A stretch of DNA of 64,000 nt from a virus. A program made the position numbers and the translations under genes. The DNA lies in IMG/VR virus record IMGVR_UViG_3300020370_000002, positions 18,806-82,805 of that record. The stretch is one strand, 5' to 3'. The notes under the pieces were generated by a model. The model saw only the letters and a program-made list of their open reading frames with translations, did no database searches and was not told where the DNA came from. Within the stretch, counting starts at the first letter, position 1, and every line of letters starts with the position of its first letter. Shown one piece after another: positions 45,143 to 60,110 of the stretch.

Positions 45143-45315
45143 AAAATTTATTTAAACGTCAGAAGAACTGGAAAGACCCAGACCCTGACGAGGTCTCCAT
45201 TGATAACGCCTACAAGACGCGTTGGATATGGTATCACACAATTTTAGCACTAGAGCTACTGATGGTAAATATACTACTCGTAGCGATATTAATAGTGTTA
45301 GCAGTTAAACTTTAG
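45139..45315 (+). CDS. Small membrane protein
   Basis: NAYKTRWIWYHTILALEL plus a TM segment. Confidence 0.6.
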   Translation: MKNLFKRQKNWKDPDPDEVSIDNAYKTRWIWYHTILALELLMVNILLVAILIVLAVKL

Positions 45316-45323
45316 GAGGTATT

Positions 45324-45731
45324 ATGGCAGCTTTTGGAAGCACTAATTTTGAATTAGTTGGAGACTTTATGGAATCAATGGATCAAGACATTCATCTTGA
45401 TCCTGAGTTTCCAGAGGAGCATATTCAAAGGCTTCGAATAAATTTAATAGAAGAAGAACTTGATGAGCTTCAGTTGGCTGTGGACAATCAAGATATGGTT
45501 GAAGTCGCAGACGCACTTACTGATCTTCTGTACGTTGTGTACGGAGCAGGTCATGCGTTCGGAATCGACTTAGATGAATGTTTCTGCGAAGTACACCGAA
45601 GCAATCTGAGTAAACTTGGTCCTGATTTTAAGCCAATAAAAAGGGAAGATGGTAAGGTTCTCAAACCTGACACATACTCCCCTCCAAATCTTAAAATGGT
45701 ACTATTTCAGGACGACTGCTACTCTGAGTAG
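45324..45731 (+). CDS. MazG-like / PRA-PH nucleotide pyrophosphohydrolase
   Basis: LIEEELDEL, EVADALTDLLYV, EVHRSNLSK, REDGKVLK. Confidence 0.88.
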   Translation: MAAFGSTNFELVGDFMESMDQDIHLDPEFPEEHIQRLRINLIEEELDELQLAVDNQDMVEVADALTDLLYVVYGAGHAFGIDLDECFCEVHRSNLSKLGPDFKPIKREDGKVLKPDTYSPPNLKMVLFQDDCYSE

Positions 45732-46165
45732 AAATGGTGATCGCCGATTGTCGTTTTATGACTATATGCGTCAGCCCAGTACGGATCTACATTCTTTGCA
45801 TGATACCAATATACGTTATCATCTAATACTGGTGAATCTTTTTTCTTTAACCTTACATATGCAATCATAGTACATAGGTTAAATACTGCTTTTGTTCTTG
45901 GAGTATCGGATTTGCCGTCGCAATACCAGCTAAATTGACAAATCCATTTTCCTCCTGTATTCTTTCGTTGCTTTACTACTTCACAAACTGTACTTGGCCA
46001 CCTCGAATCTCTTACCCGATTCAAAGTTACGTCTGCTACCGCGTACATACCTTGTATCGACTGGTTTCGAGCTTCCCAATAGATGTTTTCTGCTAGACAT
46101 TTTACTTCGTCCGCCATTAAAGAACCACTTGCCATCAATAGAATGGCTACTACTATTCCTTTCAT
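45719..46165 (-). CDS. SleB-like cell wall hydrolase with signal peptide
   Basis: CLAENIYWEARNQ, V.LNRV, CEVVKQ, CQFSWYCDGKSD, IGDHHFY. Confidence 0.9.
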   Translation of the reverse strand: MKGIVVAILLMASGSLMADEVKCLAENIYWEARNQSIQGMYAVADVTLNRVRDSRWPSTVCEVVKQRKNTGGKWICQFSWYCDGKSDTPRTKAVFNLCTMIAYVRLKKKDSPVLDDNVYWYHAKNVDPYWADAYSHKTTIGDHHFYSE

Positions 46166-46349
46166 ATTGGAACTCCATTATCATCTTAGCCTCTGGCTTT
46201 TGCTGCAATGTGTTCTGCTTCTGTTACACGAGGCGAGTTGGGCTTTCTCTTCGCACGATAACTTCCGTGTGAAACTGTCTTTCTTCCGTTTCTGCGCATC
46301 TTGATGAGTGTTGCTCTACTCCAGCTTTTATCTACTACTTGTTTTGACA

Positions 46350-46547
46350 TTAAAATGCCTCCGATTGTTTGAATGATGTTGTTACTTGCTCTTTCTTCTT
46401 TCTTTCTAACAGCCAGTTGTAAACACTATCTGGCATGTCCATTGTACTTCTACATAGAGCCATTGCTTCTATCCACTTTAGACCATCTTGTTGCATACCA
46501 CCAACAATAATCATCCAGTCGAACTGTTCATTAGTAATCATATCCAC
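46350..46547 (-). CDS. Hypothetical protein
   Basis: AGGAG RBS with GTG/ATG start. Confidence 0.5.
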   Translation of the reverse strand: MDMITNEQFDWMIIVGGMQQDGLKWIEAMALCRSTMDMPDSVYNWLLERKKKEQVTTSFKQSEAF

Positions 46548-46555
46548 TTTGTCTC

Positions 46556-46894
46556 CTAACAGTAATAAGGTCGTTCTTCGGGGAAGGCTTTTGCAGGATG
46601 ATCTTCGATTCTTGCTCTCAGATTTGATCGTCCCCATACTCCGCCTACCATTAAAAAGTTGTCATCTCCGTTACCTTCTGGATCTACACCATCGTGCTCT
46701 CCATAACCCATCGAGTACTCACCTTTCATCTTTTGGAAGCGTTTGTTTAGTGCTTCCTGTCTTTCTTGCATTCTCTTGAGGTCTCGATTCAAAAACTTCT
46801 CTGACTCTACTGGAGTTCCAACTGTATACCACCAACCACCTTCTTCTGAGCCGCCATACGCTTGCCCTATTTCATAAATGTTTAGATATTTCAT
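46556..46894 (-). CDS. Hypothetical protein
   Basis: YGGSEEGGWWY motif; C-terminal RPYYC. Confidence 0.65.
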   Translation of the reverse strand: MKYLNIYEIGQAYGGSEEGGWWYTVGTPVESEKFLNRDLKRMQERQEALNKRFQKMKGEYSMGYGEHDGVDPEGNGDDNFLMVGGVWGRSNLRARIEDHPAKAFPEERPYYC

Positions 46895-47028
46895 GTGTAC
46901 TTTCCCTTATGTTTTCGATAACCACGCTTTCCTCTTTTCTTTCGGTCTACCTCTTTTCTACCGCGAAAGGGGCTGTCCTTATCAAAAAGAATAAAGTGGT
47001 ATGTTGTTCTGTGTCTTTTATTTTTCAT
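46891..47028 (-). CDS. 45-aa basic protein, ArfA-like candidate (not in ORF track)
   Basis: MKNKRHRTTYHFILFDKDSPFRGRKEVDRKKRGKRGYRKHKGKYT; leaderless from the promoter at 47036-47064; ATGA coupling to the next gene. Confidence 0.6.
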   Translation of the reverse strand: MKNKRHRTTYHFILFDKDSPFRGRKEVDRKKRGKRGYRKHKGKYT

Positions 47029-47035
47029 ACGAAGT

Positions 47036-47064
47036 ATTATACTCGCAAACACTCCGTATGTCAA
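47036..47064 (-). promoter_or_regulatory. Sigma70-type promoter, leaderless start
   Basis: TTGACA-17-TATAAT-7 nt-ATG. Confidence 0.85.
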
Positions 47065-47067
47065 GAA

Positions 47068-47670
47068 TTATTTTTTCGCAACTCTAATTATTGTCTTGAG
47101 GGCTGACTTGATTCCCTTCTTTTTGTTGTTGTAATCAAGAACGTGCCATTCACTATCTACTACTCGTTCCTTGAGAAGCGTCATGCTATCGTAGTACGAC
47201 AGTGCATTTTCGTCATTCTCTGAGAACTTCCAGTAGGTGAGAGGAGAGTTTTTTCTGTTGTCTATTCTAGCTCTCTGCTCTTCCTCTGTGATGGACAGCC
47301 ATAGCTTGATAATCTTCACGTCTTGGAAGGATTCCCACATCTTGTAGCCTTGCAAAAACTCTCTGTACTGATCTTCTGTGCACCAGTTGTTGAGTCTCTG
47401 AACCATAGCTCGTGAGTACCAAGACCTGTCATAGAATACGATCTGACCTTTTGCTGGCATCTTTGTTTGCCAATGACCTAGCCAGTTCTCCATAGTTTGT
47501 TTACTTGGCTTTGTTGAAGGGACAACAGAGTACCATGCAGGGGATAAGTATTGGGTCAAAGCTCTAATCGTACTTGACTTTCCAGCCGTGTCTCTGCCTT
47601 CTAATACTACTGCAATGCCTTTGTTGTTGTTTGCTGCGATCTGATTTAGTTTTGCTAATAATTTTTTCAT
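47068..47670 (-). CDS. ppk2: Polyphosphate kinase 2
   Basis: EGRDTAGKSS, FYDRSWY, KLWLSI..EEQ..R, PLTYWK.S..D. Confidence 0.92.
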   Translation of the reverse strand: MKKLLAKLNQIAANNNKGIAVVLEGRDTAGKSSTIRALTQYLSPAWYSVVPSTKPSKQTMENWLGHWQTKMPAKGQIVFYDRSWYSRAMVQRLNNWCTEDQYREFLQGYKMWESFQDVKIIKLWLSITEEEQRARIDNRKNSPLTYWKFSENDENALSYYDSMTLLKERVVDSEWHVLDYNNKKKGIKSALKTIIRVAKK

Positions 47671-47676
47671 GTTTGT

Positions 47677-47705
47677 ATTATCTCACCATTTAGCGAGAAT
47701 GTCAA
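47677..47705 (-). promoter_or_regulatory. Sigma70-type promoter, leaderless start
   Basis: TTGACA-17-GATAAT-6 nt-ATG. Confidence 0.8.
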
Positions 47706-47802
47706 GCGTTATTTTCCATTTACTACAAGAAATATAAAACTTTTTTTCGTTTGCTGAAGCGTGTCCAGAACTATAAGTTTACTACATAGGCAAAAAAATT
47801 AT

Positions 47803-47831
47803 TTGACGTATGCCAAAAAGTGTGATAAAAT
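47803..47831 (+). promoter_or_regulatory. Sigma70-type promoter facing an ORF-free structured region
   Basis: TTGACG-17-TAAAAT with the same A-tract context as the other promoters. Confidence 0.7.
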
Positions 47832-47837
47832 ATATGA

Positions 47838-48250
47838 AAAATCGTAAGATGATTTGATCAATCGACTGTTTTTACAAACCTATGGTGATGAAAATATCTT
47901 GAAATATGTATGCGATTGGAGTGGAATCGGAATTAAGGGAGATTCCATCTCCAAACCCATAAAATTATTGAAGTGATATTGAATCGCCTACATACAAGCA
48001 ATCGTCAATTCGATTGTAATGATTTTCGATCACTTACTTATGACTTCGTAAATTACGATAACCCAATACGGGTTTTTAACCTACTAACGATGTAAGTGGA
48101 AATTCGCCTTAATTTTGCCAAAGTCGCGATGGGTCAAAAGAGATAAAGGACTTTGTGTAATTTTAAGGGATTATTCTTAGGCGATCAACCATCCGATAAG
48201 AATGAAAGGTATAGAGCATACACAGCAGATCGTTACTGCATAGATAAAAA
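47838..48250 (+). ncRNA. Candidate ~400-nt structured ncRNA (unknown family)
   Basis: No ORF of 60 aa or more on either strand; own promoter; many nested inverted repeats. Confidence 0.55.
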
Positions 48251-48256
48251 TTTTTT

Positions 48257-48493
48257 TCAAAGTTCCAAGTCCTGATACTTTTCGTACACTTGTTCTCGTT
48301 TTCGGTCTACTACTCCCATATCGAGGGCACCTTTTCGTCTTAGGATATCAATAATTGCAAGGACGTCCCCGATCTCTTCTTCTAATTGTTGATTTTCGAC
48401 CCCGTGGCGACCCCGCTTCAACACTTTACTACATGCTCTCACAACTTCGCCACATTCTTCCATTAGTTTCACGTACAGATTAAACCTATCCAA
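48257..48493 (-). CDS. MazG-like nucleotide pyrophosphohydrolase
   Basis: LMEECGEVVRACSK...LEEEIGDVLA. Confidence 0.8.
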   Translation of the reverse strand: MDRFNLYVKLMEECGEVVRACSKVLKRGRHGVENQQLEEEIGDVLAIIDILRRKGALDMGVVDRKREQVYEKYQDLEL

Positions 48494-48572
48494 AAACTCC
48501 TCCCGCAGATAGCATTAAGACCGCAAGGATTGCCAACCCCGCTGCGACCATTAATTGTTCATAATCTTTCAT
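48486..48572 (-). CDS. 28-aa membrane peptide
   Basis: MKDYEQLMVAAGLAILAVLMLSAGGVFG; overlaps both neighbours. Confidence 0.45.
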   Translation of the reverse strand: MKDYEQLMVAAGLAILAVLMLSAGGVFG

Positions 48573-48883
48573 ATAAGTTCCTTAATTGAGGTTTCTAGCT
48601 TCTTTAGTGTTGCTTTCGGTGCTTTCTCCAAACCCAGTAGACTCTCCACTTCAATTCCAAGATCATCAGCGATATTTGAAACGATCTCCACTTTTGTAAC
48701 AGGTAGTTCTCCAGTCTTGGTCTTGTAGATTTCACGTCTGTATACTCCTTCTCTTGATAGCTTGCCGATTATTGACTTAATACTCTTACTCAGCTCTTTA
48801 GCTAAAGCTTCTACTGTTTCCCTATTCGGGTTGTTTTGATAGGCTTCAACTATGTGTTTTGTCTGTTCCTCATTGTAGTTCAT
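48569..48883 (-). CDS. T5 A2-like DNA-binding protein, copy 1
   Basis: NY..E......Y...PNRETV..LA......SII.KL...GVY...K..IV..I...LG.....L.KA. Confidence 0.65.
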   Translation of the reverse strand: MNYNEEQTKHIVEAYQNNPNRETVEALAKELSKSIKSIIGKLSREGVYRREIYKTKTGELPVTKVEIVSNIADDLGIEVESLLGLEKAPKATLKKLETSIKELI

Positions 48884-49280
48884 CCATTTTACCTTTCAAA
48901 AATTTTGTTAATGTATCCATAAACTGCTGAACTTCAGCCATTGGATTCTCACTCTTCTTGGCTAATTCTTCAGCAGGAGGCGCTTTATCTAGGGCTATAG
49001 AGATATCTCCCGTATCTCCATCACAGGTGGTTATTACTTGAGTACAGTATTCTAACATTCCTGCGGGGATATTTTCTGCCCCAATCGCAGCCGCATATTG
49101 CATTACAAGATCGTCATATCTAACCTGTAACTCTCCACATTCTTTTTCTAGCTCACGAGAAGCCACAAAGAGTTTTGTTAAATTTTCAAATCTATCTGTA
49201 ATCTGCGCTTGCAAATTATTTATTTCTGCTGCAATAGTTTCAACTTTCCTTTCGATTGGAAACTGTACTACATTGCTCAT
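48870..49280 (-). CDS. Coiled-coil hypothetical protein
   Basis: SNVVQFP start; coupled ORF. Confidence 0.6.
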   Translation of the reverse strand: MSNVVQFPIERKVETIAAEINNLQAQITDRFENLTKLFVASRELEKECGELQVRYDDLVMQYAAAIGAENIPAGMLEYCTQVITTCDGDTGDISIALDKAPPAEELAKKSENPMAEVQQFMDTLTKFLKGKMDELQ

Positions 49281-49425
49281 CTACTTCTCCCTGTATTTCT
49301 TTTACCCACATAGGTATAAATTTCCTGTCAGGATCTCTACTTAAGATCGGACAGGGTATAAACTCTGACTCTTTTCTATTAAAAACGGAGTCACGCACAA
49401 ATGGGTGCTTCGGTTTTCTTAACAT
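49240..49425 (-). CDS. Hypothetical protein
   Basis: First ORF after the promoter at 49457-49485. Confidence 0.4.
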   Translation of the reverse strand: MLRKPKHPFVRDSVFNRKESEFIPCPILSRDPDRKFIPMWVKEIQGEVDEQCSTVSNRKES

Positions 49426-49456
49426 AAAATTCTCACTTAAAATTTTGAATGTGTAT

Positions 49457-49485
49457 ATTATCTCACGAAATAGCACTTATGTCAA
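49457..49485 (-). promoter_or_regulatory. Sigma70-type promoter
   Basis: TTGACA-17-GATAAT. Confidence 0.8.
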
Positions 49486-49506
49486 GAACTATTTTCGTTC
49501 AGGCAT

Positions 49507-49540
49507 AAAAAAACCGCCGTTAGAGTGCACCAACGGCGGC
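49507..49540 (-). terminator. Intrinsic terminator
   Basis: GCCGCCGTT-GGTGCACTCT-AACGGCGGT followed by TTTTTT. Confidence 0.9.
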
Positions 49541-49858
49541 TGGGAGTGGTTTAAGTTATGTAGCTACTAGAGCCGTCCCGAGGCGTAAGCTCGACCATAA
49601 TTCTCTGGGGGTGTGGTACGAATCCCACCTGACACATTCCGTTCCGTCTGTCAGGCAACGCACCACAACTAGGAATACATGCACTCAGAGCTGTGGCTTT
49701 ATGGTGGGGGCTGCGGCGAGGCACCAGTTTTACCGCGATCTTTACTGTCTTATCACACTATCTAGCTGGGCATGACCCAAGAAGTATTGCGTCCCTGACT
49801 TCCCCCATAAACTGGAGGTCGATTGATTTGCGAGAGGTCGACCAACTCTCGGGTGCGT
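49507..49858 (-). ncRNA. Candidate ~350-nt pseudoknotted ncRNA (unknown family)
   Basis: GC-richer non-coding stretch between an A2-like stop codon and a terminator; H-type pseudoknot, long-range helix and several hairpins. Confidence 0.65.
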
Positions 49859-50176
49859 TTAGGATACTGCGTCAAGCAGAGTCTGTAGATCACCAAAGCC
49901 AGCTTTGTTTAGGCTGACAAACTCGACACCAAGTTTGGCTTCGATGTCGGCTACCAAATCAGCTTTTCTCACCTGAGGTGGACGCTTGGTAGGCTTAGGC
50001 TGGGCAACGTATACACCCAGAGCGGAGAGCTTAGCGATAACGCTTCGCTCGGTTTTCCCAAACTGAGCTGCAAGTGCATTGACAGTCTCACGGTTGGGGG
50101 ATTCCTCGTAAGAAGCTATCATAGTGTCGATAACGTCCTGAGGGTAATTACTTGATTTAACAGCAGTCATAGTCAT
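49859..50176 (-). CDS. T5 A2-like DNA-binding protein, copy 2
   Basis: PNRETVNALA...RSVIAKLSALGVY...RKADLVADIE..LG....SLNKA. Confidence 0.7.
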   Translation of the reverse strand: MTMTAVKSSNYPQDVIDTMIASYEESPNRETVNALAAQFGKTERSVIAKLSALGVYVAQPKPTKRPPQVRKADLVADIEAKLGVEFVSLNKAGFGDLQTLLDAVS

Positions 50177-50231
50177 ACTATTTGTTCCTCCGAATAATTT
50201 TTTTAATGTTTCTCTCAATTTCATAATACAT

Positions 50232-50260
50232 ATTATATTAGAATTTACCATTTGAGTCAA
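50232..50260 (-). promoter_or_regulatory. Sigma70-type promoter
   Basis: TTGACT-17-TATAAT. Confidence 0.8.
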
Positions 50261-50672
50261 GAACTTTTTTCCATTTCCTCATCATTTTTTTCTCCGCTTT
50301 TCGTGCTTCGACTTCCCACGGAGCAGTCCAATAGTCAGCACGCTTGTACTCTTTTCCTTTGAACTTGTCAACTTTTGTACCCATCTCTAGCTCTCCTCTT
50401 GCGAATTGCTTCACATGAGTCATTTCGTGAAAGATGGTTCTTATCATGCGGTAATCGTTGAATCGGCTATTGATACGAATTTCATAGCCCCATTCGTGCA
50501 TCCAAGAATCCCCGTAATAGTTATCCTTGAACTTCGTTAGTATAAGTTTTACTGGGTAATCCGCACACTCGTCTTGCAACTTATAATGTTTTATTGCAAA
50601 GTCTAGTGCTTTTACCGCAAGTTGCTGCCTTTCCCAAGTCCACCAACCTTTTTTGATTTTTATCTTATACAT
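50238..50672 (-). CDS. Zincin-like metallopeptidase
   Basis: TIFHEMTHVKQF...PWEVEA. Confidence 0.8.
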   Translation of the reverse strand: MYKIKIKKGWWTWERQQLAVKALDFAIKHYKLQDECADYPVKLILTKFKDNYYGDSWMHEWGYEIRINSRFNDYRMIRTIFHEMTHVKQFARGELEMGTKVDKFKGKEYKRADYWTAPWEVEARKAEKKMMRKWKKVLDSNGKF

Positions 50673-50695
50673 AGATTTCCTTAATTTATGGATAT

Positions 50696-50724
50696 ATTAT
50701 ACCAGCAATTACATCCATTGTCAA
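50696..50724 (-). promoter_or_regulatory. Sigma70-type promoter
   Basis: TTGACA-17-TATAAT. Confidence 0.8.
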
Positions 50725-50885
50725 ATGATTTTGCCCCTATTCGTGAAAAAAACATCAGCGAATTCCGGGGGGCCGCGCGCGGGGTCGGAAAGTCAAGTGT
50801 TTTTTGTGTAATTTGTGCAAATTTTGTGTAATTTTTGTCCCCGTTGCGGAGACTTGTGTAATTATAAAAAATTTGGTGCATTCGT

Positions 50886-51097
50886 GCAAAAAAGACTTGA
50901 CATGCGCACCCGTTGCGCGTATACTGGCGCCGGGCGGGTACTTAAAATCGTCGTCGTACTACTACTGGCGCAGGAGACTTGCTTAATTTGCATTAATTTG
51001 CACCATACCCGCAAAAAAGACTTGACTTTTGTACTCATCGGCCGCATACTGGCGCAAGCAACACCTTATACAGTCGTCGTCGTACTACTACTGGCGC
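50886..51097 (+). repeat. Two ~125-bp direct-repeat units, each a promoter plus a 24-bp motif
   Basis: GCAAAAAAGACTTGAC at 50886 and 51011; TTGAC(A/T)-17-(T/C)ATACT; TCGTCGTCGTACTACTACTGGCGC at 50948 and 51074; TACTGGCGC four times. Confidence 0.85.
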
Positions 51098-51141
51098 CCC
51101 CGCGCCAAAAATCTCAATAAATCAAGATTTTTTTCGCGGAA

Positions 51142-51157
51142 TGTTTCACGTGAAACC
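51142..51157. promoter_or_regulatory. parS-like ParB binding site
   Basis: TGTTTCACGTGAAACC, 15/16 match to the consensus TGTTTCACGTGAAACA. Confidence 0.65.
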
Positions 51158-51271
51158 ATTGTGAAGCGCAAGGGCTATGCAATAGCCAACGCTGGAGAAT
51201 ATCGCGGCAAGTGCCAGAGTGAGCAATCCCCAATATATAGAAATTGCGAGAGCAGAGATAAGATTTTTCAT
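51146..51271 (-). CDS. 41-aa membrane peptide
   Basis: MKNLISALAISIYWGLLTLALAAIFSSVGYCIALALHNGFT; ATGA-coupled. Confidence 0.6.
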   Translation of the reverse strand: MKNLISALAISIYWGLLTLALAAIFSSVGYCIALALHNGFT

Positions 51272-51375
51272 AGTGTATTATTCCAAAGGTAATAAATTGC
51301 AGTTGCCCATATAGCAACGTCAGTAATAATCGAATAAATGAAATATCCGAGAGCCATAATTTTTGCTAGTTTCAT
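51268..51375 (-). CDS. 35-aa membrane peptide
   Basis: MKLAKIMALGYFIYSIITDVAIWATAIYYLWNNTL; ATGA-coupled; paralog of 53112..53222. Confidence 0.65.
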   Translation of the reverse strand: MKLAKIMALGYFIYSIITDVAIWATAIYYLWNNTL

Positions 51376-52034
51376 TGTCCCGCCTCCAAAACGGTTTTTC
51401 GTGTAGTATTTTTTAGTAGTGAGGCAAGAATCATTGCCTCGTAATCTCGCGCATCTTCGAGCGCGGTGTGGGGTTCGTCCGCTAGTGCGTTGTACGCATC
51501 ACGCGCGACATATTTTGCCATAGTGTCGGCAGTCATAGAAACGCGAGTTCGTTTTGCAGTCCAGAGGTTGCGCTCTTCGCACCATGCGACATATTCGGCA
51601 GTCGTGCCAATCATATTTTTTGCCGCTTTCATTAGGCAAAATTTCTGCGAAAATACGCCAAGGTCGATTCCAGTATTTCGGCATTTGCCAAAATCGAAAG
51701 CGATATTGTAGGCAGTCAAAACAGGCTTGTATTGTCCTAAGATTCGAGCGAGCCAAATATTGACCAGTGTAGGCGAGCAAATAGAGCGTTGCCCATTGTC
51801 TAGCAAATCCTCGTAATGCTTGAGCCTACGCGCTCGCGTTTGCTTAGAAAAGAAAGCGTCAGCGGGTGCGCCTTTGACAGCGAATAAAGGCAGTTTGCCG
51901 AAATGCCCATTTAGCAGAACCGCGAATTGCTCAATAATTGCGCCTTTGCGATCCATGATAACCGCGCCAAAATCTGCGACCGTTTGTTGTTGGGTTGTCT
52001 CGGTATCGACAATCAAGTAATAGTGTTTATTCAT
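51372..52034 (-). CDS. DEDDh 3'-5' exonuclease
   Basis: IVDTETT, AYNIAFD, HTALEDA. Confidence 0.85.
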   Translation of the reverse strand: MNKHYYLIVDTETTQQQTVADFGAVIMDRKGAIIEQFAVLLNGHFGKLPLFAVKGAPADAFFSKQTRARRLKHYEDLLDNGQRSICSPTLVNIWLARILGQYKPVLTAYNIAFDFGKCRNTGIDLGVFSQKFCLMKAAKNMIGTTAEYVAWCEERNLWTAKRTRVSMTADTMAKYVARDAYNALADEPHTALEDARDYEAMILASLLKNTTRKTVLEAGQ

Positions 52035-52035
52035 T

Positions 52036-52506
52036 TTATGCGTTCCTCGCGTTGTATGAAATAGGATTATAAACCCGAATACCCATAGATTGCAAGGCAT
52101 TTCGGACGTTTTCGGAATCATCAAACATAAAAGCATTATAGCGCATCCATGCCAGAGAAACCCCAAGATCACGCGCACATTGGCGAATCATGGATTGTTT
52201 GAGAATACCATCGGCAATAGTCGAGCCAATAGGCCGCGAGTATATAAACCGATAGCGTAGATTAGACCGCACCAGAAACGCAAGGTCTGCGTCACCAATA
52301 ACGCGAGCCGTCATAATGACAACATCATGCCGCGATTGGTCAATGGTTCGCCATGAATCCGCGAGAGGCAGAAGCGAATCTCTCGCGATTTTTTCGGGCG
52401 TGTTGTTGTCGATCCATGCCGACAGGTTGAGCGTACCATCTGCCAGAGTATTCTGCCTATGGCTTGAGTCGATGGTAGTCCCATCTAGATCAAAAATAAA
52501 GAGCAT
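52036..52506 (-). CDS. HAD-family phosphatase (PNKP-like; possible functional analogue of T5 dmp)
   Basis: FDLDGT, MTAR, K, MFDD. Confidence 0.85.
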   Translation of the reverse strand: MLFIFDLDGTTIDSSHRQNTLADGTLNLSAWIDNNTPEKIARDSLLPLADSWRTIDQSRHDVVIMTARVIGDADLAFLVRSNLRYRFIYSRPIGSTIADGILKQSMIRQCARDLGVSLAWMRYNAFMFDDSENVRNALQSMGIRVYNPISYNARNA

Positions 52507-52711
52507 AAAAATATCCTATAATGCCGAGTGAATTTAATATGATTAAGTTGTAGAGCTTACCAGAGGTTGCTTGTATAGTCAACAGCGCAAGCCCAACAAT
52601 CGCAAGAAATTTTCCTGCATTATAATCAATGATAAAGGGAGCCAAGCCCATGCAGATCGTACCGATCCACGCGAGCCATTCAACCAAAGCCTGACGGCTT
52701 TGAGCATCCAT
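52490..52711 (-). CDS. Small multi-pass membrane protein
   Basis: Three hydrophobic segments; coupled ORF. Confidence 0.65.
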   Translation of the reverse strand: MDAQSRQALVEWLAWIGTICMGLAPFIIDYNAGKFLAIVGLALLTIQATSGKLYNLIILNSLGIIGYFYALYF

Positions 52712-53001
52712 TATTGGATGCTCATTAGAAGGGCTGAGAGAGAGCGCATTGATGCGCCTTCTAGACCTTCAAGGCTTTCACCTTGCAAAGCCTTTTCGAT
52801 GGCTTGCACCATCTCGGCTTTGGTTGAGCGTGAGGCTTTCGCCTTTGGCTCTGCTTTTTTGTAAAGCCCAAGCATAACGGCTTTTGAAATGACAGAACGG
52901 ACGGGAAGCCCGAATTCTGCCGCGAGATCATCAGCGACAGAGCGCGTGATGGGTGAGCGATCGTCCATAATGGCGATCATTTTAGTAGTGTAGTTTGACA
53001 T
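52711..53001 (-). CDS. T5 A2-like DNA-binding protein, copy 3
   Basis: AAGGAGG RBS; SNY...LAAEFG...RSVISK...GLY.K...TKAEMVQAIE..L....LEGLEGA. Confidence 0.7.
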   Translation of the reverse strand: MSNYTTKMIAIMDDRSPITRSVADDLAAEFGLPVRSVISKAVMLGLYKKAEPKAKASRSTKAEMVQAIEKALQGESLEGLEGASMRSLSALLMSIQ

Positions 53002-53043
53002 ATGAGCCTCCTTAGGCGTGTCGGTTAATTTTAATATGCAAGC

Positions 53044-53072
53044 ATTATCGCACATTTTTGCGAAAAAGTCAA
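53044..53072 (-). promoter_or_regulatory. Pre-early-like promoter
   Basis: TTGACT-17-GATAAT. Confidence 0.75.
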
Positions 53073-53111
53073 GCATTATTTTATATTTCTTTTGCATATA
53101 TTTCTTGCCCC

Positions 53112-53222
53112 TTAGAAGAAAATGATATAAACGATTCCGCCTATGACGATCATGTCAGCGGTGATAGAATAAATCATGTAAGCCCTGAAGGCGAATTTTG
53201 CTAGTTGTTTTTTGATTTTCAT
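53112..53222 (-). CDS. 36-aa membrane peptide
   Basis: MKIKKQLAKFAFRAYMIYSITADMIVIGGIVYIIFF; leaderless from the promoter at 53230-53258. Confidence 0.65.
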   Translation of the reverse strand: MKIKKQLAKFAFRAYMIYSITADMIVIGGIVYIIFF

Positions 53223-53229
53223 AAGGTGA

Positions 53230-53258
53230 ATTTTACAGGAGTCTTTCGCAAATGTCAA
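53230..53258 (-). promoter_or_regulatory. Pre-early-like promoter, leaderless start
   Basis: TTGACA-17-TAAAAT-7 nt-ATG. Confidence 0.75.
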
Positions 53259-53295
53259 TGGTAATAATGCACATTCCATTATATTTCCATTATTT

Positions 53296-53314
53296 AATGA
53301 GAATGATTCTCATT
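53296..53314. promoter_or_regulatory. Fur-box-like 9-1-9 palindrome
   Basis: AATGAGAAT-G-ATTCTCATT, perfect inverted repeat. Confidence 0.65.
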
Positions 53315-53316
53315 TG

Positions 53317-53368
53317 GCGGGGGCGGTTAAGAGACGCACCATCTTGGTGCGCGGCGTCGCTCCCCCGC
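53317..53368. repeat. GC-rich nested inverted repeat (possible genome-end/packaging signal)
   Basis: GCGGGGG...CGCACC-ATCTT-GGTGCG...CCCCCGC. Confidence 0.55.
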
Positions 53369-53413
53369 ACGTACAACTTTGGGTTTTTTCGGCAACTGAC
53401 TTAAAAAAATTTC

Positions 53414-53442
53414 TTGACATTGTATGTCATTTTTAGTATAAT
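53414..53442 (+). promoter_or_regulatory. Sigma70-type promoter, leaderless start
   Basis: TTGACA-17-TATAAT-6 nt-ATG. Confidence 0.85.
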
Positions 53443-53448
53443 TTTTTC

Positions 53449-54963
53449 ATGAGTACTTATAGATACGATTTTACCATAGCTAATGCTCCTCCTGGTCAGT
53501 CTGGGCAATATCCTCTAGCAACACAGAGCACTGTTTTCATGCCAGAGACTAGTATATTTTTTCAGCATGGTGATACGATTCAGGCAAAGCATACACACCC
53601 AACAGGTTTAAACATAAACTATACTGGCCCTGATGTACATGGGGCAAATCCAGATCCTACAGTTAAGACTTCCTTAGCTTCAGGAGAGACAAGAACTTTA
53701 ACATGGAGTGGGACCTTTCAAGATGAGGCTACTCCGCCTAATACTGTAGATTTTAACGATGACTATTTTACACAATGGTTTTTCTTTGCAAATGATGGCA
53801 CAGATAATATATACTCTCAAAAAATAGTTTATAGAAGGGTAAAAATTACATCCTTTACGACTTCTGCAACAACAGTTGAGCCTGGGGAGTCAATAACTTT
53901 TGGTGTCGGAGGCCTCACAGGATTCCCTGATGCTAGTGGTGCTAATGGAAATCGTTTATATATTAGTATATTTCCAGCAGGAGCCGCTTCTTTAGTAGGA
54001 ACTAATTATATAAGCTGGAATAATTCTAATAATCAACTTGGAAGGGTTACCACGTCAGATACTTTTCCGGTATTACAAACCTCAGGCACAGCAGGTAATC
54101 TACCTGATGGAACTTATAATGCTTATATAACTCATTATGGAGGAGAAACAGCCCTAAACGGTAGTTTAACTGTAGGTAACAGATTTTTTGGATCAGAAAG
54201 AAGACTTAGAAACAACAGTGGGGTTATTTTTACAAAGTCATTTACAGTAGCTACCCCCACTAATACAACTCCCACTAATTTTAGCTTAGGAGCAGATATA
54301 GAGAACTCTGCACTAAATGCAACATGGAATCTAGGACAAGTTACAGTAGCAGGTATGGATGCAGGAGTTAGTACTAGTATTTCTGTTTCTGGACAAGGAG
54401 CGCCCCGATTTTCTATAAATGGAGGATCGTACAATAATGCAACAGTAACAAATTTAACAGTCTCTAATGGAGATACAGTTGATATGCAGATGGATGCTTC
54501 TGGAGAGTTTAATACCCCGCATACAGCAACTTTAAATATTGGAGGTGTAGAAGACTCTATGGTTGTTACAACTATAATAGATCCTGGAACAGGAGGAGGA
54601 GGTTCAGGAAGCGGTACTGGAACCGGAGACTTTGGTTTAATAGTTAAAAATGCTGCCACTCCTCCTGCTATTATATTTGGACCAGGTATAAGATCAAGTC
54701 ATCTACTAGGTAGCAATACATTCGTAATAGCAGCTAACTCATCAATTGATGTAGGCCCCTTCGAAGGTTTTACAGGCACAAATATATCGACTTGCGGATT
54801 TTTTCTTGTGGCTGTTAACGCCAACAATGTTTTTATAGGCTATCAAATAGTAGTAACTAGGGGGCTGGGCAACACAATTAACGGTATAGATGTAGGAAAG
54901 GTGCGTATTAGTAACTCTTCAAGCCACCAAGTTGAAGGTCGCTACTACGCGGTGAGATATTAA
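53449..54963 (+). CDS. Putative tail-tip receptor-binding protein (T5 pb5 position)
   Basis: Beta-rich Ig-like segments, Gly linker, C-terminal FGL.V.N domain; lies next to terS. Confidence 0.55.
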   Translation: MSTYRYDFTIANAPPGQSGQYPLATQSTVFMPETSIFFQHGDTIQAKHTHPTGLNINYTGPDVHGANPDPTVKTSLASGETRTLTWSGTFQDEATPPNTVDFNDDYFTQWFFFANDGTDNIYSQKIVYRRVKITSFTTSATTVEPGESITFGVGGLTGFPDASGANGNRLYISIFPAGAASLVGTNYISWNNSNNQLGRVTTSDTFPVLQTSGTAGNLPDGTYNAYITHYGGETALNGSLTVGNRFFGSERRLRNNSGVIFTKSFTVATPTNTTPTNFSLGADIENSALNATWNLGQVTVAGMDAGVSTSISVSGQGAPRFSINGGSYNNATVTNLTVSNGDTVDMQMDASGEFNTPHTATLNIGGVEDSMVVTTIIDPGTGGGGSGSGTGTGDFGLIVKNAATPPAIIFGPGIRSSHLLGSNTFVIAANSSIDVGPFEGFTGTNISTCGFFLVAVNANNVFIGYQIVVTRGLGNTINGIDVGKVRISNSSSHQVEGRYYAVRY

Positions 54964-55680
54964 ATGAGTACATATGGACTACAAGTATTTGGAGAGGGGG
55001 TGGCAGCTTTTCAAATTGATTCAAATACCACAGATACACAGCATTTGCCCATAACCCATTCAGCCACAGGAACCTCTGTAGGAGCGGGACTTACTAATGC
55101 TCAAAAAGCAGCGATTTACCAGCCTGGAGACATTATAATGGCAAGGCCTGTTTCGGGTTCAGGAAGTCTGTGTATAAGTGATGATGCTTACCCGAATTTT
55201 TCTCAAAATGCCGACTATAAAATACTTTCTCCAGCAGCGGGTGCTCCCACCAATGTAAACAGTTCGACTCATGGTCTTACTGTTTTTAACAACCCTAGTA
55301 CAGCTGCTGACGGAAGTGTTATTCCTTCTAAAAAAATATTTGATTCAAGAAGTTTTACTAACTCTATCCCTTTTAATCAGATTTATGGAAAACTTAGTTT
55401 TGATGGAGGACCACAAAGTGCTGGAGCTCTAATTGCAACAAACAACATTGTTTTAGCCTCAACCACACAAGCAAAGTATGATAAGACATATACCGTTATG
55501 AACGGCGGTTACTTTGTAGAAGGCTTTCCCACTGTAATTCACGGATTCTATTTTGATGATGCAAATAACAGAATACTTTATCACAGTGTTATAACTTTTG
55601 CTTTGCCTTGGTACCCTTACCCAGTAATAAACAACCCCATAAAAAACTATGGCGACGTAATGATAGGAGAATTAGTATGA
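54964..55680 (+). CDS. Tail-tip associated protein
   Basis: YGLQVF...FQIDS and HGLTVFN...IFDS duplicated motif typical of proteins encoded after J. Confidence 0.6.
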   Translation: MSTYGLQVFGEGVAAFQIDSNTTDTQHLPITHSATGTSVGAGLTNAQKAAIYQPGDIIMARPVSGSGSLCISDDAYPNFSQNADYKILSPAAGAPTNVNSSTHGLTVFNNPSTAADGSVIPSKKIFDSRSFTNSIPFNQIYGKLSFDGGPQSAGALIATNNIVLASTTQAKYDKTYTVMNGGYFVEGFPTVIHGFYFDDANNRILYHSVITFALPWYPYPVINNPIKNYGDVMIGELV

Positions 55681-56135
55681 CAGTTTATGGTATAGCATAC
55701 GTAGACGCAGAGGGTCACATAGACTCTTTTTATATACCTGGCCCCACGGGTTATCCTGAAGAAGGAACCTCCGAGGCTGACAACACAAAAACAATCGTTC
55801 ATGTAACAGACGAAGTTACAGATATGTCAAGCTTTGTAAAATATAAATATTACAAAGATGGTATATGGAAAAGCCGTACAGGACCTCCCGCAGATTATTA
55901 TAACTGGAAAGATGAAGCTTGGGTTCTTGACTCTACGGAACTCTTTTTGCAACTAAGAAAGGAAAGAGATTTAAGACTTTACCAATGTGATTGGACACAG
56001 CTAGATGACTCTAAACTCAGCATGACAAAGAAGGGGGAGTGGGCAGAGTATAGACAAGCTCTTCGTGAAGTTCCACAAACTAATGGCGACGCAAAGTTAT
56101 TAAGCGAGGTAGTTTGGCCAGATAAACCATCATAG
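55677..56135 (+). CDS. Tail fibre assembly chaperone
   Basis: LRKERDLRLYQCDWTQL.D...W..YRQALREVP...WPDKP. Confidence 0.8.
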   Translation: MTVYGIAYVDAEGHIDSFYIPGPTGYPEEGTSEADNTKTIVHVTDEVTDMSSFVKYKYYKDGIWKSRTGPPADYYNWKDEAWVLDSTELFLQLRKERDLRLYQCDWTQLDDSKLSMTKKGEWAEYRQALREVPQTNGDAKLLSEVVWPDKPS

Positions 56136-56146
56136 AAAAATAATTC

Positions 56147-56175
56147 TTGACATTTAATCCCCTTTTGAGTATAAT
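56147..56175 (+). promoter_or_regulatory. Sigma70-type promoter, leaderless start
   Basis: TTGACA-17-TATAAT-6 nt-ATG. Confidence 0.85.
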
Positions 56176-56181
56176 TTCCCC

Positions 56182-56643
56182 ATGGCTAAAGAAGTAACAA
56201 CAATTTCTCCGGAAGGACTTGAAGTAGCAAACTCGTATCTCACTCTTGGGAATATTCGGGGTGTTTGCGAGCAGCTGCAAGTTGACGAAAAGAAGGTTGT
56301 TGATATATTAAATAAACGAGAAGTAAAGAAGTACATTGATACTGTTTACCTCGACACGGGGTATAGAAACAAAAATAACATTGGCTCTTTACTAGATGAG
56401 ATGATACAATCAAAGCTCGATGAAGCACAGGAAAGCGGTGTGTACTCCAGCAAAGACTTAGCTGACTTACTACAAATGGCTCACAAAATGCGAATGGATG
56501 AAATCAAAGCTCAAGCAGACCTTGAGAAAGCATCCGCTTCCAACATCAAGAATCAGACGAATGTTCAGATAAATGATGGTGTACCGTTCGGTCAGGGTAA
56601 CTACGGCAAGCTAATGGATAAACTACTCAATGGAACAGCCTGA
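56182..56643 (+). CDS. terS: Terminase small subunit (T5-like)
   Basis: ISPEGLEVANSYL, DTGYRN, KLDEA; upstream of terL. Confidence 0.75.
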   Translation: MAKEVTTISPEGLEVANSYLTLGNIRGVCEQLQVDEKKVVDILNKREVKKYIDTVYLDTGYRNKNNIGSLLDEMIQSKLDEAQESGVYSSKDLADLLQMAHKMRMDEIKAQADLEKASASNIKNQTNVQINDGVPFGQGNYGKLMDKLLNGTA

Positions 56644-56830
56644 TTTGAATGAAATATACACAAAGTTTGCCGCTCACGAAGTTCAGTGTGAAGAGCGATG
56701 GAAAACTATTTTTGCCCGTCTTGAGCGTATGGACGCAAAGATGGACAGACTACAAAATATGCTCATGGGAGCAACTGGAACCGTAATTTTATTTTTAGGA
56801 GGAATTATTATAACGCTACTTAACTCGTAG
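56630..56830 (+). CDS. Coiled-coil + TM small protein
   Basis: HEVQCEERW...; C-terminal TM. Confidence 0.6.
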   Translation: MEQPDLNEIYTKFAAHEVQCEERWKTIFARLERMDAKMDRLQNMLMGATGTVILFLGGIIITLLNS

Positions 56831-56859
56831 CCGACGCTGCAAAGCGTAGAGATAATGAT

Positions 56860-57303
56860 GTGGAACCAATCACAGCCGCAGTGGCGGCTTTGGGTGCGCT
56901 AAAACAGGGTGTAAAAGTCGGTAAAGAGTTACACGATATGGCCGCAGATATAGGCAAACTCTGGGGCGGAATAGATGCAGCCAGGGGAGCGCACACCAAA
57001 AAGAAGAAAGGTCAGATACTCTCTGTAGAAGAGGAAGCATTACAAACTTTTGCAGCAAAACGAAAAGCAGATGAAATTGAGAAGGAACTTCGAGAGTTTA
57101 TCATCTATACTTTGGGTGGAGCAGCCTGGTCTCAGTTAATTGAAATCCGAGGGCAAGTAAGAAAACAGCGAGCTGAAGCGGCCCTCGCGGAACAACGAAA
57201 ACGACGAAAAGCCGTTGAAGGTACACTTATTACAGCCACAGTTATATTTTGTGGATTTGCTATATACTGGATGGGCTACGTAGTTATAAACAAGGGGTTT
57301 TAA
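56860..57303 (+). CDS. Helical protein with C-terminal TM
   Basis: MEPITAA start; architecture shared with 57331..57783. Confidence 0.6.
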   Translation: MEPITAAVAALGALKQGVKVGKELHDMAADIGKLWGGIDAARGAHTKKKKGQILSVEEEALQTFAAKRKADEIEKELREFIIYTLGGAAWSQLIEIRGQVRKQRAEAALAEQRKRRKAVEGTLITATVIFCGFAIYWMGYVVINKGF

Positions 57304-57330
57304 TGCAAGGTTCTGTTTGGGAGAACGCTA

Positions 57331-57783
57331 GTGATTGGGGAGGTCGCAGCAGTTTTAAGTGCCCTCAAGGCACTGAACGACGGTATTCAGACTATAAAGC
57401 AGTCCGCGGGAAACGCAGGTGATTTACAATCACTTATTGGTAGATACGCAGGCGCTTCAGAAAAGTATAGGGATGTAGAAAAAGCAAGAACAGGGCGAAT
57501 GAGCTACAAAGAAGCTCTCGCCATGGAAAGTGCCAAGAGACAACTATTAAACTTTGATAGACAATTAAAAGACATATGCTTGATGCAGGGTCAAGGTGAC
57601 CTGTATAATTCAATAAAGACTCGAATGGAAGAGTCACGGATAGCCCACGAAAAAGAACTTGTACGTCTTCGAGCAAGACGCAGAGAAATAAAGAAGTATA
57701 TAAGCTGGGCAAGTATGGGCATACTTTGTTGGGTTTTTTCAATGGCAATGGTTTGGCTGATAATAGCCATATGGGAAGCATAA
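57331..57783 (+). CDS. Helical protein with C-terminal TM
   Basis: MIGEVAA start; basic patch before the TM. Confidence 0.6.
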   Translation: MIGEVAAVLSALKALNDGIQTIKQSAGNAGDLQSLIGRYAGASEKYRDVEKARTGRMSYKEALAMESAKRQLLNFDRQLKDICLMQGQGDLYNSIKTRMEESRIAHEKELVRLRARRREIKKYISWASMGILCWVFSMAMVWLIIAIWEA

Positions 57784-58682: not shown

Positions 58683-58887
58683 AAAGACCAGAGTACCTAA
58701 AAAGTATTTAGGAGGCACCAAGGGTTCTAAAAGGTCACAGCTTGCCGCAGTTCTTAAAAGAATTTCAGCATTATATAAAGCGGGAAAGACTGTCCCAAGA
58801 TCGCTAATCAAGCAACGAATAGCGTTAGGAAAGGCGAATGGCACACGCAAAAAGAGGAAAAAGTCTGCTAAAAAGAGCAGGCGTTAG
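58648..58887 (+). CDS. Basic small protein
   Basis: KDKKTRVPKKYL; K/R-rich. Confidence 0.6.
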   Translation: MARKRRSVPKDKKTRVPKKYLGGTKGSKRSQLAAVLKRISALYKAGKTVPRSLIKQRIALGKANGTRKKRKKSAKKSRR

Positions 58888-59134
58888 AGGCTACAATAAG
58901 CCTAAGCGCACGCCTCGACACCCGAAGAAGTCGCACATTGTGGTAGCAAGAGTAGGGCATAAAGTAAAGACTATTCGTTTTGGTCAGCAAGGTGCTAAAA
59001 CCGCAGGTAAGCCAAAGAAAGGCGAGAGCCAAGCGATGAAAAGAAAAAGAGCCTCATTTAAAGCTCGGCACAGAAAGAATATTGCAAGAGGTAAAATGAG
59101 CGCGGCCTACTGGGCCAACAAAGTGAAATGGTAA
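58838..59134 (+). CDS. Basic small protein
   Basis: NKPKRTP.HPKKSH.V...IRFGQQG...SFKARH...SAAYWANKVKW. Confidence 0.75.
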   Translation: MAHAKRGKSLLKRAGVRGYNKPKRTPRHPKKSHIVVARVGHKVKTIRFGQQGAKTAGKPKKGESQAMKRKRASFKARHRKNIARGKMSAAYWANKVKW

Positions 59135-59135
59135 T

Positions 59136-59188
59136 CTCGTTCATCCTTTAAGGACGGAAGTAAGGAGCACTTAGCCTGAAGGAACGCC
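59136..59188 (+). promoter_or_regulatory. Glutamine riboswitch (glnA motif / glutamine-I class)
   Basis: CGTTCA-TCCT TTA AGGA-CGGAAGTA-AGG...CCT-GAAG-GAACG: P1 CGTTC/GAACG, P2, E-loop and P3. Confidence 0.8.
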
Positions 59189-59213
59189 AGACACGGCTAA
59201 AAGGAGAGATACT

Positions 59214-59267
59214 ATGAAAGAAGTAACTTTAGTCTATCGTGGTGTTACATACACTAAAAAGGTATAG
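59214..59267 (+). CDS. 17-aa YRG peptide (DUF4278/downstream-peptide-like)
   Basis: AAGGAG RBS; MKEVTLVYRGVTYTKKV. Confidence 0.75.
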   Translation: MKEVTLVYRGVTYTKKV

Positions 59268-59280
59268 GGAGAGGTAAAAT

Positions 59281-60101: not shown

Positions 60102-60110
60102 GAGGCCACT

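Follow-up and report, generated by a model that had tools for sequence, protein, structure and literature searches.

A CpG-rich, Pre-Early-Type Segment with a parS Site and a Fur-Box-Type Palindrome in a Marine T5-like Siphophage: a Candidate Short Terminal Repeat

Introduction

The transfer of T5 DNA into the host cell halts when 8% of the genome has entered, by a mechanism that has been open for decades, and DnaA boxes are, to our knowledge, the only host-factor proposal made for this stop so far. The first-step-transfer repeat of T5 and the other Demerecviridae, which in the T5 record (NC_005859) is the long terminal repeat at 1-10219, holding dmp, A1, A2 and the injection stop signal, is the closest known system to the locus described here. 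This locus is a segment at 50740-53400 of a 64,000-nucleotide stretch of viral DNA, called the window hereafter, which corresponds to bases 18806-82805 of the 82,805-bp IMG/VR record IMGVR_UViG_3300020370_000002. A first, sequence-only reading of the window had taken the segment for a miniaturised terminal repeat, bracketed by sites for two host proteins, parS for ParB at one end and a Fur box at the other.

As described in the accessible part of 10.64898/2026.04.02.716235, just two of the pre-early genes of T5 are essential, A1 and A2, and A1 is present in 227 of 227 Demerecviridae. Regarding the stop itself, the available text of the preprint of Davison (10.1101/866236) proposes that the DnaA boxes of the injection stop signal (iss) are bound by membrane-associated host DnaA, so that a host-factor stop model as such has already been put forward for T5; in the same portion of the preprint, the words "Fur" and "ParB" have no occurrence.

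Position and Composition of the Segment

The window phage is, as judged from its genes and their order, a marine T5-like siphophage. Its TerL is ~50% identical to those of T5-like Vibrio phages and of Pectobacterium phage My1, with no isolate nearer, and a near-identity DNA search of the phage collection returned no close DNA relative. The two ends of the record share an exact 4911-bp repeat, leaving a unique genome of 77,894 bp. The early genes occupy the minus strand, extending downward from 53.3 to 19 kb, in a region collinear with that of T5 (D2 helicase, D3, a regulator, a split NAD ligase (ligA/B), D5, DnaB, primase, polymerase, SbcCD and RNR), and the late genes are located on the plus strand (receptor-binding protein (RBP) candidate, chaperone, terS, terL, portal, head and tail). 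Read from the RBP side, the circular map gives the segment, the early genes, then tail, head, portal, terL, terS, RBP and the segment again. This order is the linear map of T5 with the segment replacing the terminal repeat. The phage is a T5 relative, and the segment stands exactly at the position of the T5 repeat, between RBP/terS and the early genes as in T5. At ~2.7 kb, it is smaller than the repeats of Demerecviridae (8-13 kb).

The end carrying the Fur-type palindrome and a GC hairpin had been said to adjoin an RBP-terS-terL block, and it is indeed followed by a 504-amino-acid (aa) RBP candidate, a tail-fibre chaperone (PF16778), terS and terL. The RBP candidate holds the same map place as T5 oad and is 26-34% identical in relatives whose terS are 92-97% identical. 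The clade is abundant in marine data, with at least 598 IMG/VR stretches bearing a terL relative, and 20 runs from 9 studies contain at least half of the sampled words of 47000-56900. The public-run evidence consists of assembled contigs (24 runs), some of the relatives counted are near-duplicates of one another (L019/L020 and L016/L018, for example), and the PHROG scans covered 64 open reading frames (ORFs) of the window.

The segment was described from the sequence as richer in GC and CG than its flanks, which holds for the genome as a whole: its GC content of 0.451 is reached by only 0.06% of equal-length genome windows, its CpG frequency of 0.068 is the genome maximum (mean 0.030, standard deviation 0.008), and no other part of the genome is as rich in GC and CpG as 50.6-53.4 kb. 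The observed/expected ratio of CpG is 1.35-1.5 in the segment, compared to 0.35-0.6 in the adjoining late genes. The same signature is seen in the T5 terminal repeat, which is CpG-rich in a CpG-poor genome: with T5 72-98 kb unsampled, the top 9 of 83 three-kb windows all lie within the repeat, and the observed/expected ratio is 1.1-1.47 there and at most 0.91 elsewhere.

Genes of the Segment

All genes of the segment are on the minus strand (Table 1). The gene content proposed earlier, an A2-like protein, a HAD phosphatase, a DEDDh exonuclease and four small membrane proteins, was found again for the HAD protein, the exonuclease and the four small hydrophobic ORFs; the likeness to A2 is present but weak. 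The HAD protein is assigned by its sequence to the Dmp-family phosphatases, and T5 Dmp itself, a 5'-deoxyribonucleotidase, falls in the same PHROG, phrog_415. As in the T5 repeat, this Dmp-family gene is accompanied by a gene of the A2 family, here only a candidate, with a small membrane protein beside it, and by strong sigma-70 consensus promoters. The first ORF of the operon starts ~7 nucleotides (nt) after the -10 box in the window and in its relatives, so that the mRNA appears leaderless. A 19-residue stretch with a Kyte-Doolittle value of 1.6 or more occurs at least once in every one of the four small ORFs (36/55, 73, 35 and 41 aa).

Four members of the A2/D3 PHROG are present in the genome, namely three weak paralogues (48569-48883, 49859-50260 and 52711-53001, the last within the segment) and a strong match to phrog_1725 (E 1.8e-29) at 39370-39765. 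The latter is 49% identical to T5 D3 and stands in the place of D3; it is, on this similarity, the D3 orthologue and not A2, which leaves the 96-aa protein of the segment as the best A2 candidate, though a weak one. T5 and Vibrio phage D399 have two phrog_1725 members each, an A2 copy and a D3 paralogue. When a 12-sequence alignment of the A2-like protein was compared by hhalign, the probability was 66.6% with three A2 proteins (E 5e-5) and 55.7% with three D3 proteins, and tblastn of the A2-like protein against isolates gave no match.

No A1 was recognised in the sequence-only reading, and the dedicated searches agree. The best tblastn match of three A1 proteins had an E of 0.74, and a hidden Markov model (HMM) of the three had no match at E<=10; phrog_1745 (A1) had no match in the scanned ORFs or in the genome, the control genomes of the genome search being silent as well. 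A1 was also not found in two 95-kb relatives, G002 and G003. Being a hallmark of all the surveyed Demerecviridae, A1 by its absence places this clade outside that hallmark.

The DxE, NxxFD and Hx4D motifs are legible in the sequence of the exonuclease, and a PDB sequence search with it returned chance matches only (E 0.65). The gene is found in L123-125, L034, L038 and G003. The possibility of the DEDDh exonuclease being a fixed A1 substitute throughout the clade was ruled out, as the nine closest relatives are without it, while it recurs in more distant ones. Upstream of parS, most relatives carry a thymidylate-kinase-like gene (tmk) where the window has the exonuclease and two tiny ORFs. The tmk-like gene of the window is relocated ~4 kb away, and G003 has both cassettes.

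Fur-Type Palindrome and Its 13-mer

The Fur-like palindrome and the GC hairpin reported for one end of the segment are both present, at the RBP/terS side. The palindrome, AATGAGAATGATTCTCATT, is perfect over 9-1-9 and holds the 13-mer AATGAGAATCATT; it matches 13 of 15 positions of TGATAATNATTATCA, which we take to be the Fur 7-1-7 box. It has the form of an AT-rich 7-1-7/9-1-9 Fur box of the TGAnAAT-N-ATTnTCA type and, like Caulobacter Fur sites, is built on TGAGAAT-N-ATTCTCA. The minus-strand reading of the palindrome, AATGAGAATCATTCTCATT, is one base off AATGAGAATCATTTTCATT, listed in the accessible part of PMC3055841 as the Fur site of A1S_2581/2582 in Acinetobacter, and the palindrome resembles TTTGAGAATGGTTCTCAAT, the Caulobacter Fur site of CC_0156 in the available text of PMC2724300. 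Unlike Fur boxes that overlap promoters, it is found on a phage, off any promoter and beside a GC hairpin (or beside parS in relatives), its centre (53305) being ~109 nt from the -35 box of the RBP promoter.

The same element was then recognised in described phages. The presumed Fur 15-mer matches T5 (NC_005859) only in the terminal repeat, exactly at 233 nt from the left end and with one mismatch at 9658, and the reversed-pattern control gave none. The 13-mer is exact in T5 at 9587, 9610 and 9656 and has one mismatch at 9697, so that four copies fall within 125 bp, inside the annotated injection stop signal (9140-10149) and 40-160 nt from the annotated major nick. In My1, two exact inverted copies (12257 and 12286) are located ~570-600 nt inside the inner edge of the 12,854-bp repeat, and Vibrio phage PG07 has seven copies (at most one mismatch) at 109668-110122, in an untranslated stretch after the pre-early ORFs. 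EPS7 and D399 have a single one-mismatch copy each, with 0-1 matches per genome in the reversed-pattern control. The 13-mer is thus shared by the segment and the T5 repeat. As it is near-constant in phages whose A2 can barely be aligned, a conserved host protein would be a better candidate for its binding than a phage protein. No paper linking T5 pre-early DNA to Fur was found in the literature searched.

As seen in the survey of relatives, parS and the palindrome are both conserved and neither is universal. In the set of 45 parS loci (see below), the palindrome lies at most 75 nt from parS in 10 and 1.83 kb upstream in 3; the flanks taken were 2 kb, and an arrangement like that of the window, with the palindrome 2.1 kb away, would escape this count. 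The bracketing of the segment by parS and a Fur box is therefore correct for the window, but in many relatives the palindrome adjoins parS. A second "Fur-like" copy in L016 and L018 was discounted, being inside a small hydrophobic ORF and non-palindromic in L023.

parS Site

As proposed, a parS-type site is present at one end of the segment, on the early-gene side, before a conserved array of inverted repeats and promoters. It has 15 of the 16 bases of TGTTNCACGTGAAACA, which we take to be the parS consensus, and its 14-mer core GTTTCACGTGAAAC (51143-51156) is exact and the sole copy in the genome, with a chance expectation of ~0.0003 exact copies and 0.004 for any consensus variant. Among the HAD-based loci reaching at least 1400 nt past the HAD gene, parS was found at the equivalent place in 7 of 10, and among exonuclease-based loci in 3 of 3, exact in two and with one mismatch in one. 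When IMG/VR was searched by pattern with the right half of parS and the downstream inverted repeat only, 45 contigs were obtained, in which the unspecified left half completes the site to 16/16 in 37 and to 15/16 in 8. The site varies at only two positions, at which the consensus itself is degenerate as well, and each of five long relatives has one parS per record. The gene upstream differs by strain and always stops at the TGA inside parS, making parS a part of the conserved non-coding block downstream. The five Demerecviridae genomes differ from the segment in this respect, having no parS at 0 mismatches and few one-mismatch matches, which are outside the pre-early regions.

The site is the same 16-bp palindrome as in the bacterial chromosomal parS/ParB-CTP centromere, consensus-identical in most relatives and single per phage genome. 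Unlike that centromere, it is carried by a lytic-type phage without ParA or ParB, at the 3' end of an early operon and beside a terminator and a promoter array. Phage-plasmids (P1 and N15, for example) encode a ParB of their own. No ParB_N domain was found in the window phage (the control search was positive in 11 of 14 genomes), nor a FUR-family domain (control genomes positive). As the phage encodes neither protein, the sites are probably bound by proteins of the host, presumably ParB on parS and Fur on the palindrome.

Array beside parS

The repeat/promoter array announced for the parS end was found as two tandem units with two plus-strand sigma-70-type promoters (Table 1), the equivalents of P1 in relatives being TTGACA-17-TATAAT. 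A GGCGC-N4-GCGCC inverted repeat precedes the terminator-like hairpin, and an equivalent hairpin follows parS in all aligned loci. The order of the array is the terminator-like hairpin, TTTTGGCGCG-N-GGGCGCCAGT, a purine-rich variable stretch of ~25 nt and the reverse complement of the A-tract/-35/-10 promoter, with the unit present two or three times and the GC palindrome at its end. The ~400 nt between parS and the promoter of the next gene (M78-like peptidase) have a fixed architecture in 11 of 11 aligned loci. From their orientation, the array promoters are predicted to fire back toward parS and to stop at the hairpin.

The segment further resembles the T5 repeat in having, at its inner end, untranslated DNA that is conserved and rich in repeats. 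The non-coding block is better conserved than the neighbouring proteins, and the same was remarked for the T5 repeat regions by Davison (10.1101/866236, in its available part). The centres of the units are too divergent to align for covariation, as regards a small-RNA reading, and Rfam at E<=1 gave no match over 49200-53450. As a lead only, the CTGGCGC heptamers of the array would fit the nick consensus NPu|GCGCN given in the T5 record. Unlike T5, there are no DnaA boxes (TTWTNCACA) in 49200-53500, the whole genome having 5.

Sequencing Depth and Contig Ends

Depth was taken as the mean k-mer depth per contig in strain-mixed metagenomes, from 32 listed pieces of 945. In run X1, the contigs 50603-52068 and 52039-53283 have depths of 35.9 and 38.7, with the flanks at 20.4-22.2 (45214-48637), 20.7 (53265-57518) and 19.1 (61365-63395). 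The segment has a depth of 15.3 compared to 5.5-7.1 in the flanks in X3, 25-30.3 compared to 12.8-13.7 in X4 and ~22 compared to 11.5-11.6 in X15. Relative to the flanks and terL-portal, the listed contigs give ratios of 1.7-1.9 (X1), 2.2-2.8 (X3), 1.8-2.4 (X4) and 1.9 (X15), that is ~1.7-2.8x in 4 of 4 runs from four studies, which is the depth that a collapsed terminal repeat would give. Summed depths were left out of these copy-number estimates. The right edge of the elevated region is near 53.3 kb.

The claim of a miniaturised terminal repeat is consequently supported in part, by the T5-equivalent position, the CpG signature, the 13-mer and the approximately two-fold contig depth, the last of these being confounded by strain mixtures; we lean slightly towards the segment being such a repeat. 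Contig ends were rejected as signs of physical termini, as a terminally redundant genome gives no graph branch. The hot spots of contig ends coincide with junctions of variable and conserved DNA or with GC-rich hairpins and repeats. The GC palindrome at the early-gene end of the array is reached, or only just passed, by the ends of the IMG/VR contigs that underlie L018/L044 and L024, L042 and L065 start at the nested GC hairpin, and Logan contigs of X3, X4 and X15 start at 53362.

Proposed Explanation and Its Alternatives

The explanation preferred here, to which we give about an even chance, is that the segment is the pre-early module of an A1-less marine T5-like siphophage and probably also a ~2.7-kb terminal direct repeat collapsed in assembly. 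From the features above, we infer the identity as a terminal repeat, the binding of host ParB and Fur, the order of entry and any pause in DNA transfer. By analogy with the dmp end of T5, the RBP-side end, with the Fur-type palindrome and GC hairpin, would enter first. Host sigma-70 RNA polymerase would then read the minus-strand operon inward from the consensus promoters, giving the small membrane proteins, the A2-family DNA-binding protein, the Dmp-type deoxynucleoside monophosphate (dNMP) phosphatase and, in this strain, the DEDDh exonuclease. Together with the exonuclease, or with other genes of the cassette, the phosphatase could break host DNA down to nucleosides, as A1 and Dmp do in T5. 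The inner end, with parS, the bidirectional terminator, the GGCGC-N4-GCGCC inverted repeat and two or three promoters facing parS, may be the counterpart of the T5 injection stop, where the parS/array block would be bound by host ParB, with Fur adjacent or at the opposite end.

As in Davison's model of T5, a host DNA-binding protein of the origin region is thereby proposed to hold a conserved stretch of non-coding repeats, at the inner end of the DNA that enters first; unlike that model, the host site is parS (ParB) together with the Fur-type palindrome and not DnaA boxes, and both models are proposals. A generalisation of this scheme appears improbable, although it can be stated: T5-like phages would use abundant, sequence-specific host DNA-binding proteins for two-step entry, with Fur-box repeats as the conserved core of the injection stop in T5 and the marine clade alike and, in the A1-less clade, a single canonical parS, beside the Fur site and inward-facing promoters, whose host ParB-CTP clamps would block or ratchet the transfer.

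Several observations weigh against the preferred explanation. The depths are contig means from strain mixtures and hence confounded; the summed depth of the HAD region reaches 4-6x baseline in X3, X4 and X15, indicating some strain sharing, and a second strain in X1 (depth ~23) could alone double the depth if identical over 2.7 kb. The left edge is loose, with a depth of 20.7 at 49560-49611 and ~30 at 49943-50511, which places it between 49.6 and ~50.8 kb. Regarding the genes, the operon is inverted relative to T5, and the A2-likeness is weak (hhalign 67%), BLASTP of the 96-aa protein to T5 A2 being non-significant (E 0.43). The phage has no A1, and since A1 is essential in T5, a second-step transfer of the T5 style may not exist here. 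As for the sites, parS is missing from L038, L050 and L053. In 17 related loci, a palindrome copy (at most 2 mismatches) is present upstream of the A2-like gene in 8 and in none of the other 9; the close relatives L017 and L022-L024 are without it and have other repeats there instead. Moreover, the palindrome centre is ~82 nt upstream of the inferred start of the 53258-53230 promoter.

The segment could instead be no terminal repeat but a plain island of early genes at the early/late junction, where recombination is frequent, cassettes are exchanged and the excess depth comes from strains sharing it, which we regard as possible but doubtful. On this reading, the Fur box would tie the membrane-protein/A2-like operon or the RBP operon to host iron, and parS would recruit host ParB, and SMC through it, after entry or would titrate ParB. 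An island of this kind fits the exonuclease/tmk swap, with tmk moved to 47068-47670, the loose ends and variant contigs at 52031 and 53254-53321, the clustering of contig breaks at variable/conserved junctions and the summed depths of X3, X4 and X15, which exceed two-fold; in addition, the divergent promoter region resembles the oad/llp intergenic region of T5, which is outside the T5 repeat. However, the strain-specific exonuclease cassette is itself at ~2x baseline in 4 of 4 runs, and the most conserved block, from terL to the portal, is at baseline depth. The segment proteins are 58-85% identical, compared to 84-97% for terS/terL, so that strain sharing should raise the depth of the latter genes instead. 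The CpG signature and the 13-mer also link the segment to the repeat of T5.

Both palindromes could otherwise be bound by phage proteins, the Fur-like one as an operator of one of the A2/D3-family paralogues or as a TerS site for the start of packaging beside terS, and the "parS" as a further phage-protein site with no more than a resemblance to the host centromere; this we consider unlikely. It would explain why up to four palindrome copies lie directly upstream of terS in L032, why the palindrome is between the A2-like gene and terS in L116, L053 and L028, and why it is off any promoter, and the genome offers three A2/D3-family paralogues plus D3 and D5-like regulators as binders. Nevertheless, the 13-mer is near-identical across phages with barely alignable A2 and terL only 50% identical, which fits a host protein better, and the palindrome is within one base of Fur sites listed in the accessible part of PMC3055841. 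The parS site, moreover, is 16/16 in 37 of the 45 loci, including the positions that were not searched, and varies only where the consensus does.

The exact 4911-bp end repeat of the record corresponds to window 59090-64000 (contig 1-4911) and is the conserved riboswitch-terL-portal block, holding a DUF1353 gene, the riboswitch, terL and the portal; it is an assembly artefact of circular closure. That it could instead be the physical terminal repeat is hardly credible: IMG/VR assigns the record to its class with direct terminal repeats and the repeat is exact, but it cuts ORFs at both edges, its interior is single-copy (X1 61365-63395, depth 19.1 compared to a baseline of 20.7), and its edges are contig-end hot spots in unrelated assemblies (among 80 terL-bearing contigs, the right end is at 63710-64022 in 13 and the left end at 58873-59019 in 5), as fits a conserved terL-portal graph edge used at both ends of a circular path.

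Neighbouring Features

The first gene past the array, at 50238-50672, encodes a protein of 144 aa that contains an HExxH motif and weakly matches M78/DUF6782 metallopeptidases; its start codon is at 50672, and it has a perfect TTGACA-17-TATAAT promoter that is kept in relatives. Further on, a GC-rich (~52%) untranslated stretch at 49290-49860, downstream of the second A2/D3-family paralogue, is closed by a strong terminator on the minus strand (49541-49512), after which comes a consensus promoter. Public runs show several strain variants and joints in this stretch, and the folding of the untranslated 49505-49862 is no better than that of shuffled sequences (z -1.48).

On the other side, the RBP candidate and the next protein, of 238 aa, are only 24-34% identical among relatives (L016-L024), compared to 92-97% for terS, and together they form what is, from this divergence, a hypervariable host-recognition cassette (53449-56135), at whose edges contigs often break. 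A glutamine riboswitch (RF01739, 50.8 bits) is located at 59136-59190, between terS and terL. In the relative G003 (95.8 kb; L172-L176, 4765-25379), the terS-terL gap is ~20 kb, compared to 3.5 kb in the window, and the two ends of its contig have 184 nt in common (99.5%), within the array. The host could not be taken from metagenome-assembled genome (MAG) bins, as 13 related contigs fell in Parcubacteria, Gammaproteobacteria, Saccharibacteria, Pelagibacter, Flavobacteriaceae and other bins, which are mutually inconsistent and were treated as binning noise.

Table 1. Features of the segment and its borders, in window coordinates.
Feature	Position	Strand	Remarks
Candidate collapsed terminal repeat	50603..53283		exact-match contigs at ~2x flank depth; edges uncertain by a few hundred bases
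GC-rich palindrome, early-gene end of array	50765..50788		kept in relatives
Two tandem ~125-nt units, each with A-tract, -35 and -10	50848..51055	+	family D1: 83 nt, 72% identity, spacing 125
Promoter-like site P1	50897..50925	+	TTGACA-17-TATACT, 11/12 matches; toward parS, antisense to genes
Four CTGGCGC copies, two pairs 41-42 nt apart	50924..51097	+	all plus-strand copies in window; one minus-strand copy elsewhere
Promoter-like site P2	51022..51050	+	TTGACT-17-CATACT, 9/12 matches; toward parS; kept in relatives
AT-rich inverted repeat, T-runs on both strands	51100..51139		pair I13, 15-nt arms, 87% complementary; bidirectional terminator-like
parS-type 16-mer	51142..51157		15/16 to consensus; the 41-aa ORF stops at its TGA
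41-aa hydrophobic ORF	51146..51271	-	no PHROG or Pfam match
35-aa hydrophobic ORF	51268..51375	-	46%-identical 35-aa ORF in G002
Predicted DEDDh-motif 3'-5' exonuclease, 221 aa, variable cassette	51372..52037	-	phrog_20187 E 1.9e-8; phrog_192 E 5.1e-6
Predicted HAD phosphatase, T5 Dmp family, 156 aa	52036..52506	-	phrog_415 E 2.5e-15; BLASTP to T5 Dmp 9e-10
73-aa hydrophobic ORF	52490..52711	-	between A2-like and HAD genes; T5.005 position in T5; kept in relatives
A2/D3-family predicted DNA-binding protein, 96 aa from MSNYTTK	52711..53001	-	phrog_1725 E 1.6e-5
Promoter-like site before A2-like gene	53044..53072	-	TTGACT-17-GATAAT, with TG
36-aa hydrophobic ORF (55 aa from upstream ATG)	53112..53222	-	start ~7 nt after -10; arrangement kept in relatives
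Operon promoter-like site	53230..53258	-	TTGACA-17-TAAAAT; kept in relatives
Fur-box-type perfect 9-1-9 palindrome	53296..53314		matches listed Fur sites; holds the 13-mer
Nested GC hairpin	53317..53368		then T-run 53383-53389; kept in relatives
RBP-candidate promoter, consensus	53414..53442	+	12/12 matches
504-aa RBP candidate	53449..54963	+	position and hypervariability only; without family match; PF16778 chaperone next

Significance

No published case of a lytic-type phage with a host-type parS but without ParB was found in the literature searched, and the marine clade provides such a phage, having a host-type centromere site and no ParB of its own. The near-consensus Fur-box 13-mer, of which T5, My1 and PG07 have clusters in their injection-stop regions and which recurs with parS in the abundant, uncultured marine clade, is a testable candidate for the stop signal. 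If the reading with Fur and ParB is true, the injection stop signal of T5 would be a Fur-dependent element, which here would be ParB-dependent as well. If the 2.7-kb repeat is real, this clade would show the pre-early programme of T5 in a minimal natural form that does without A1.

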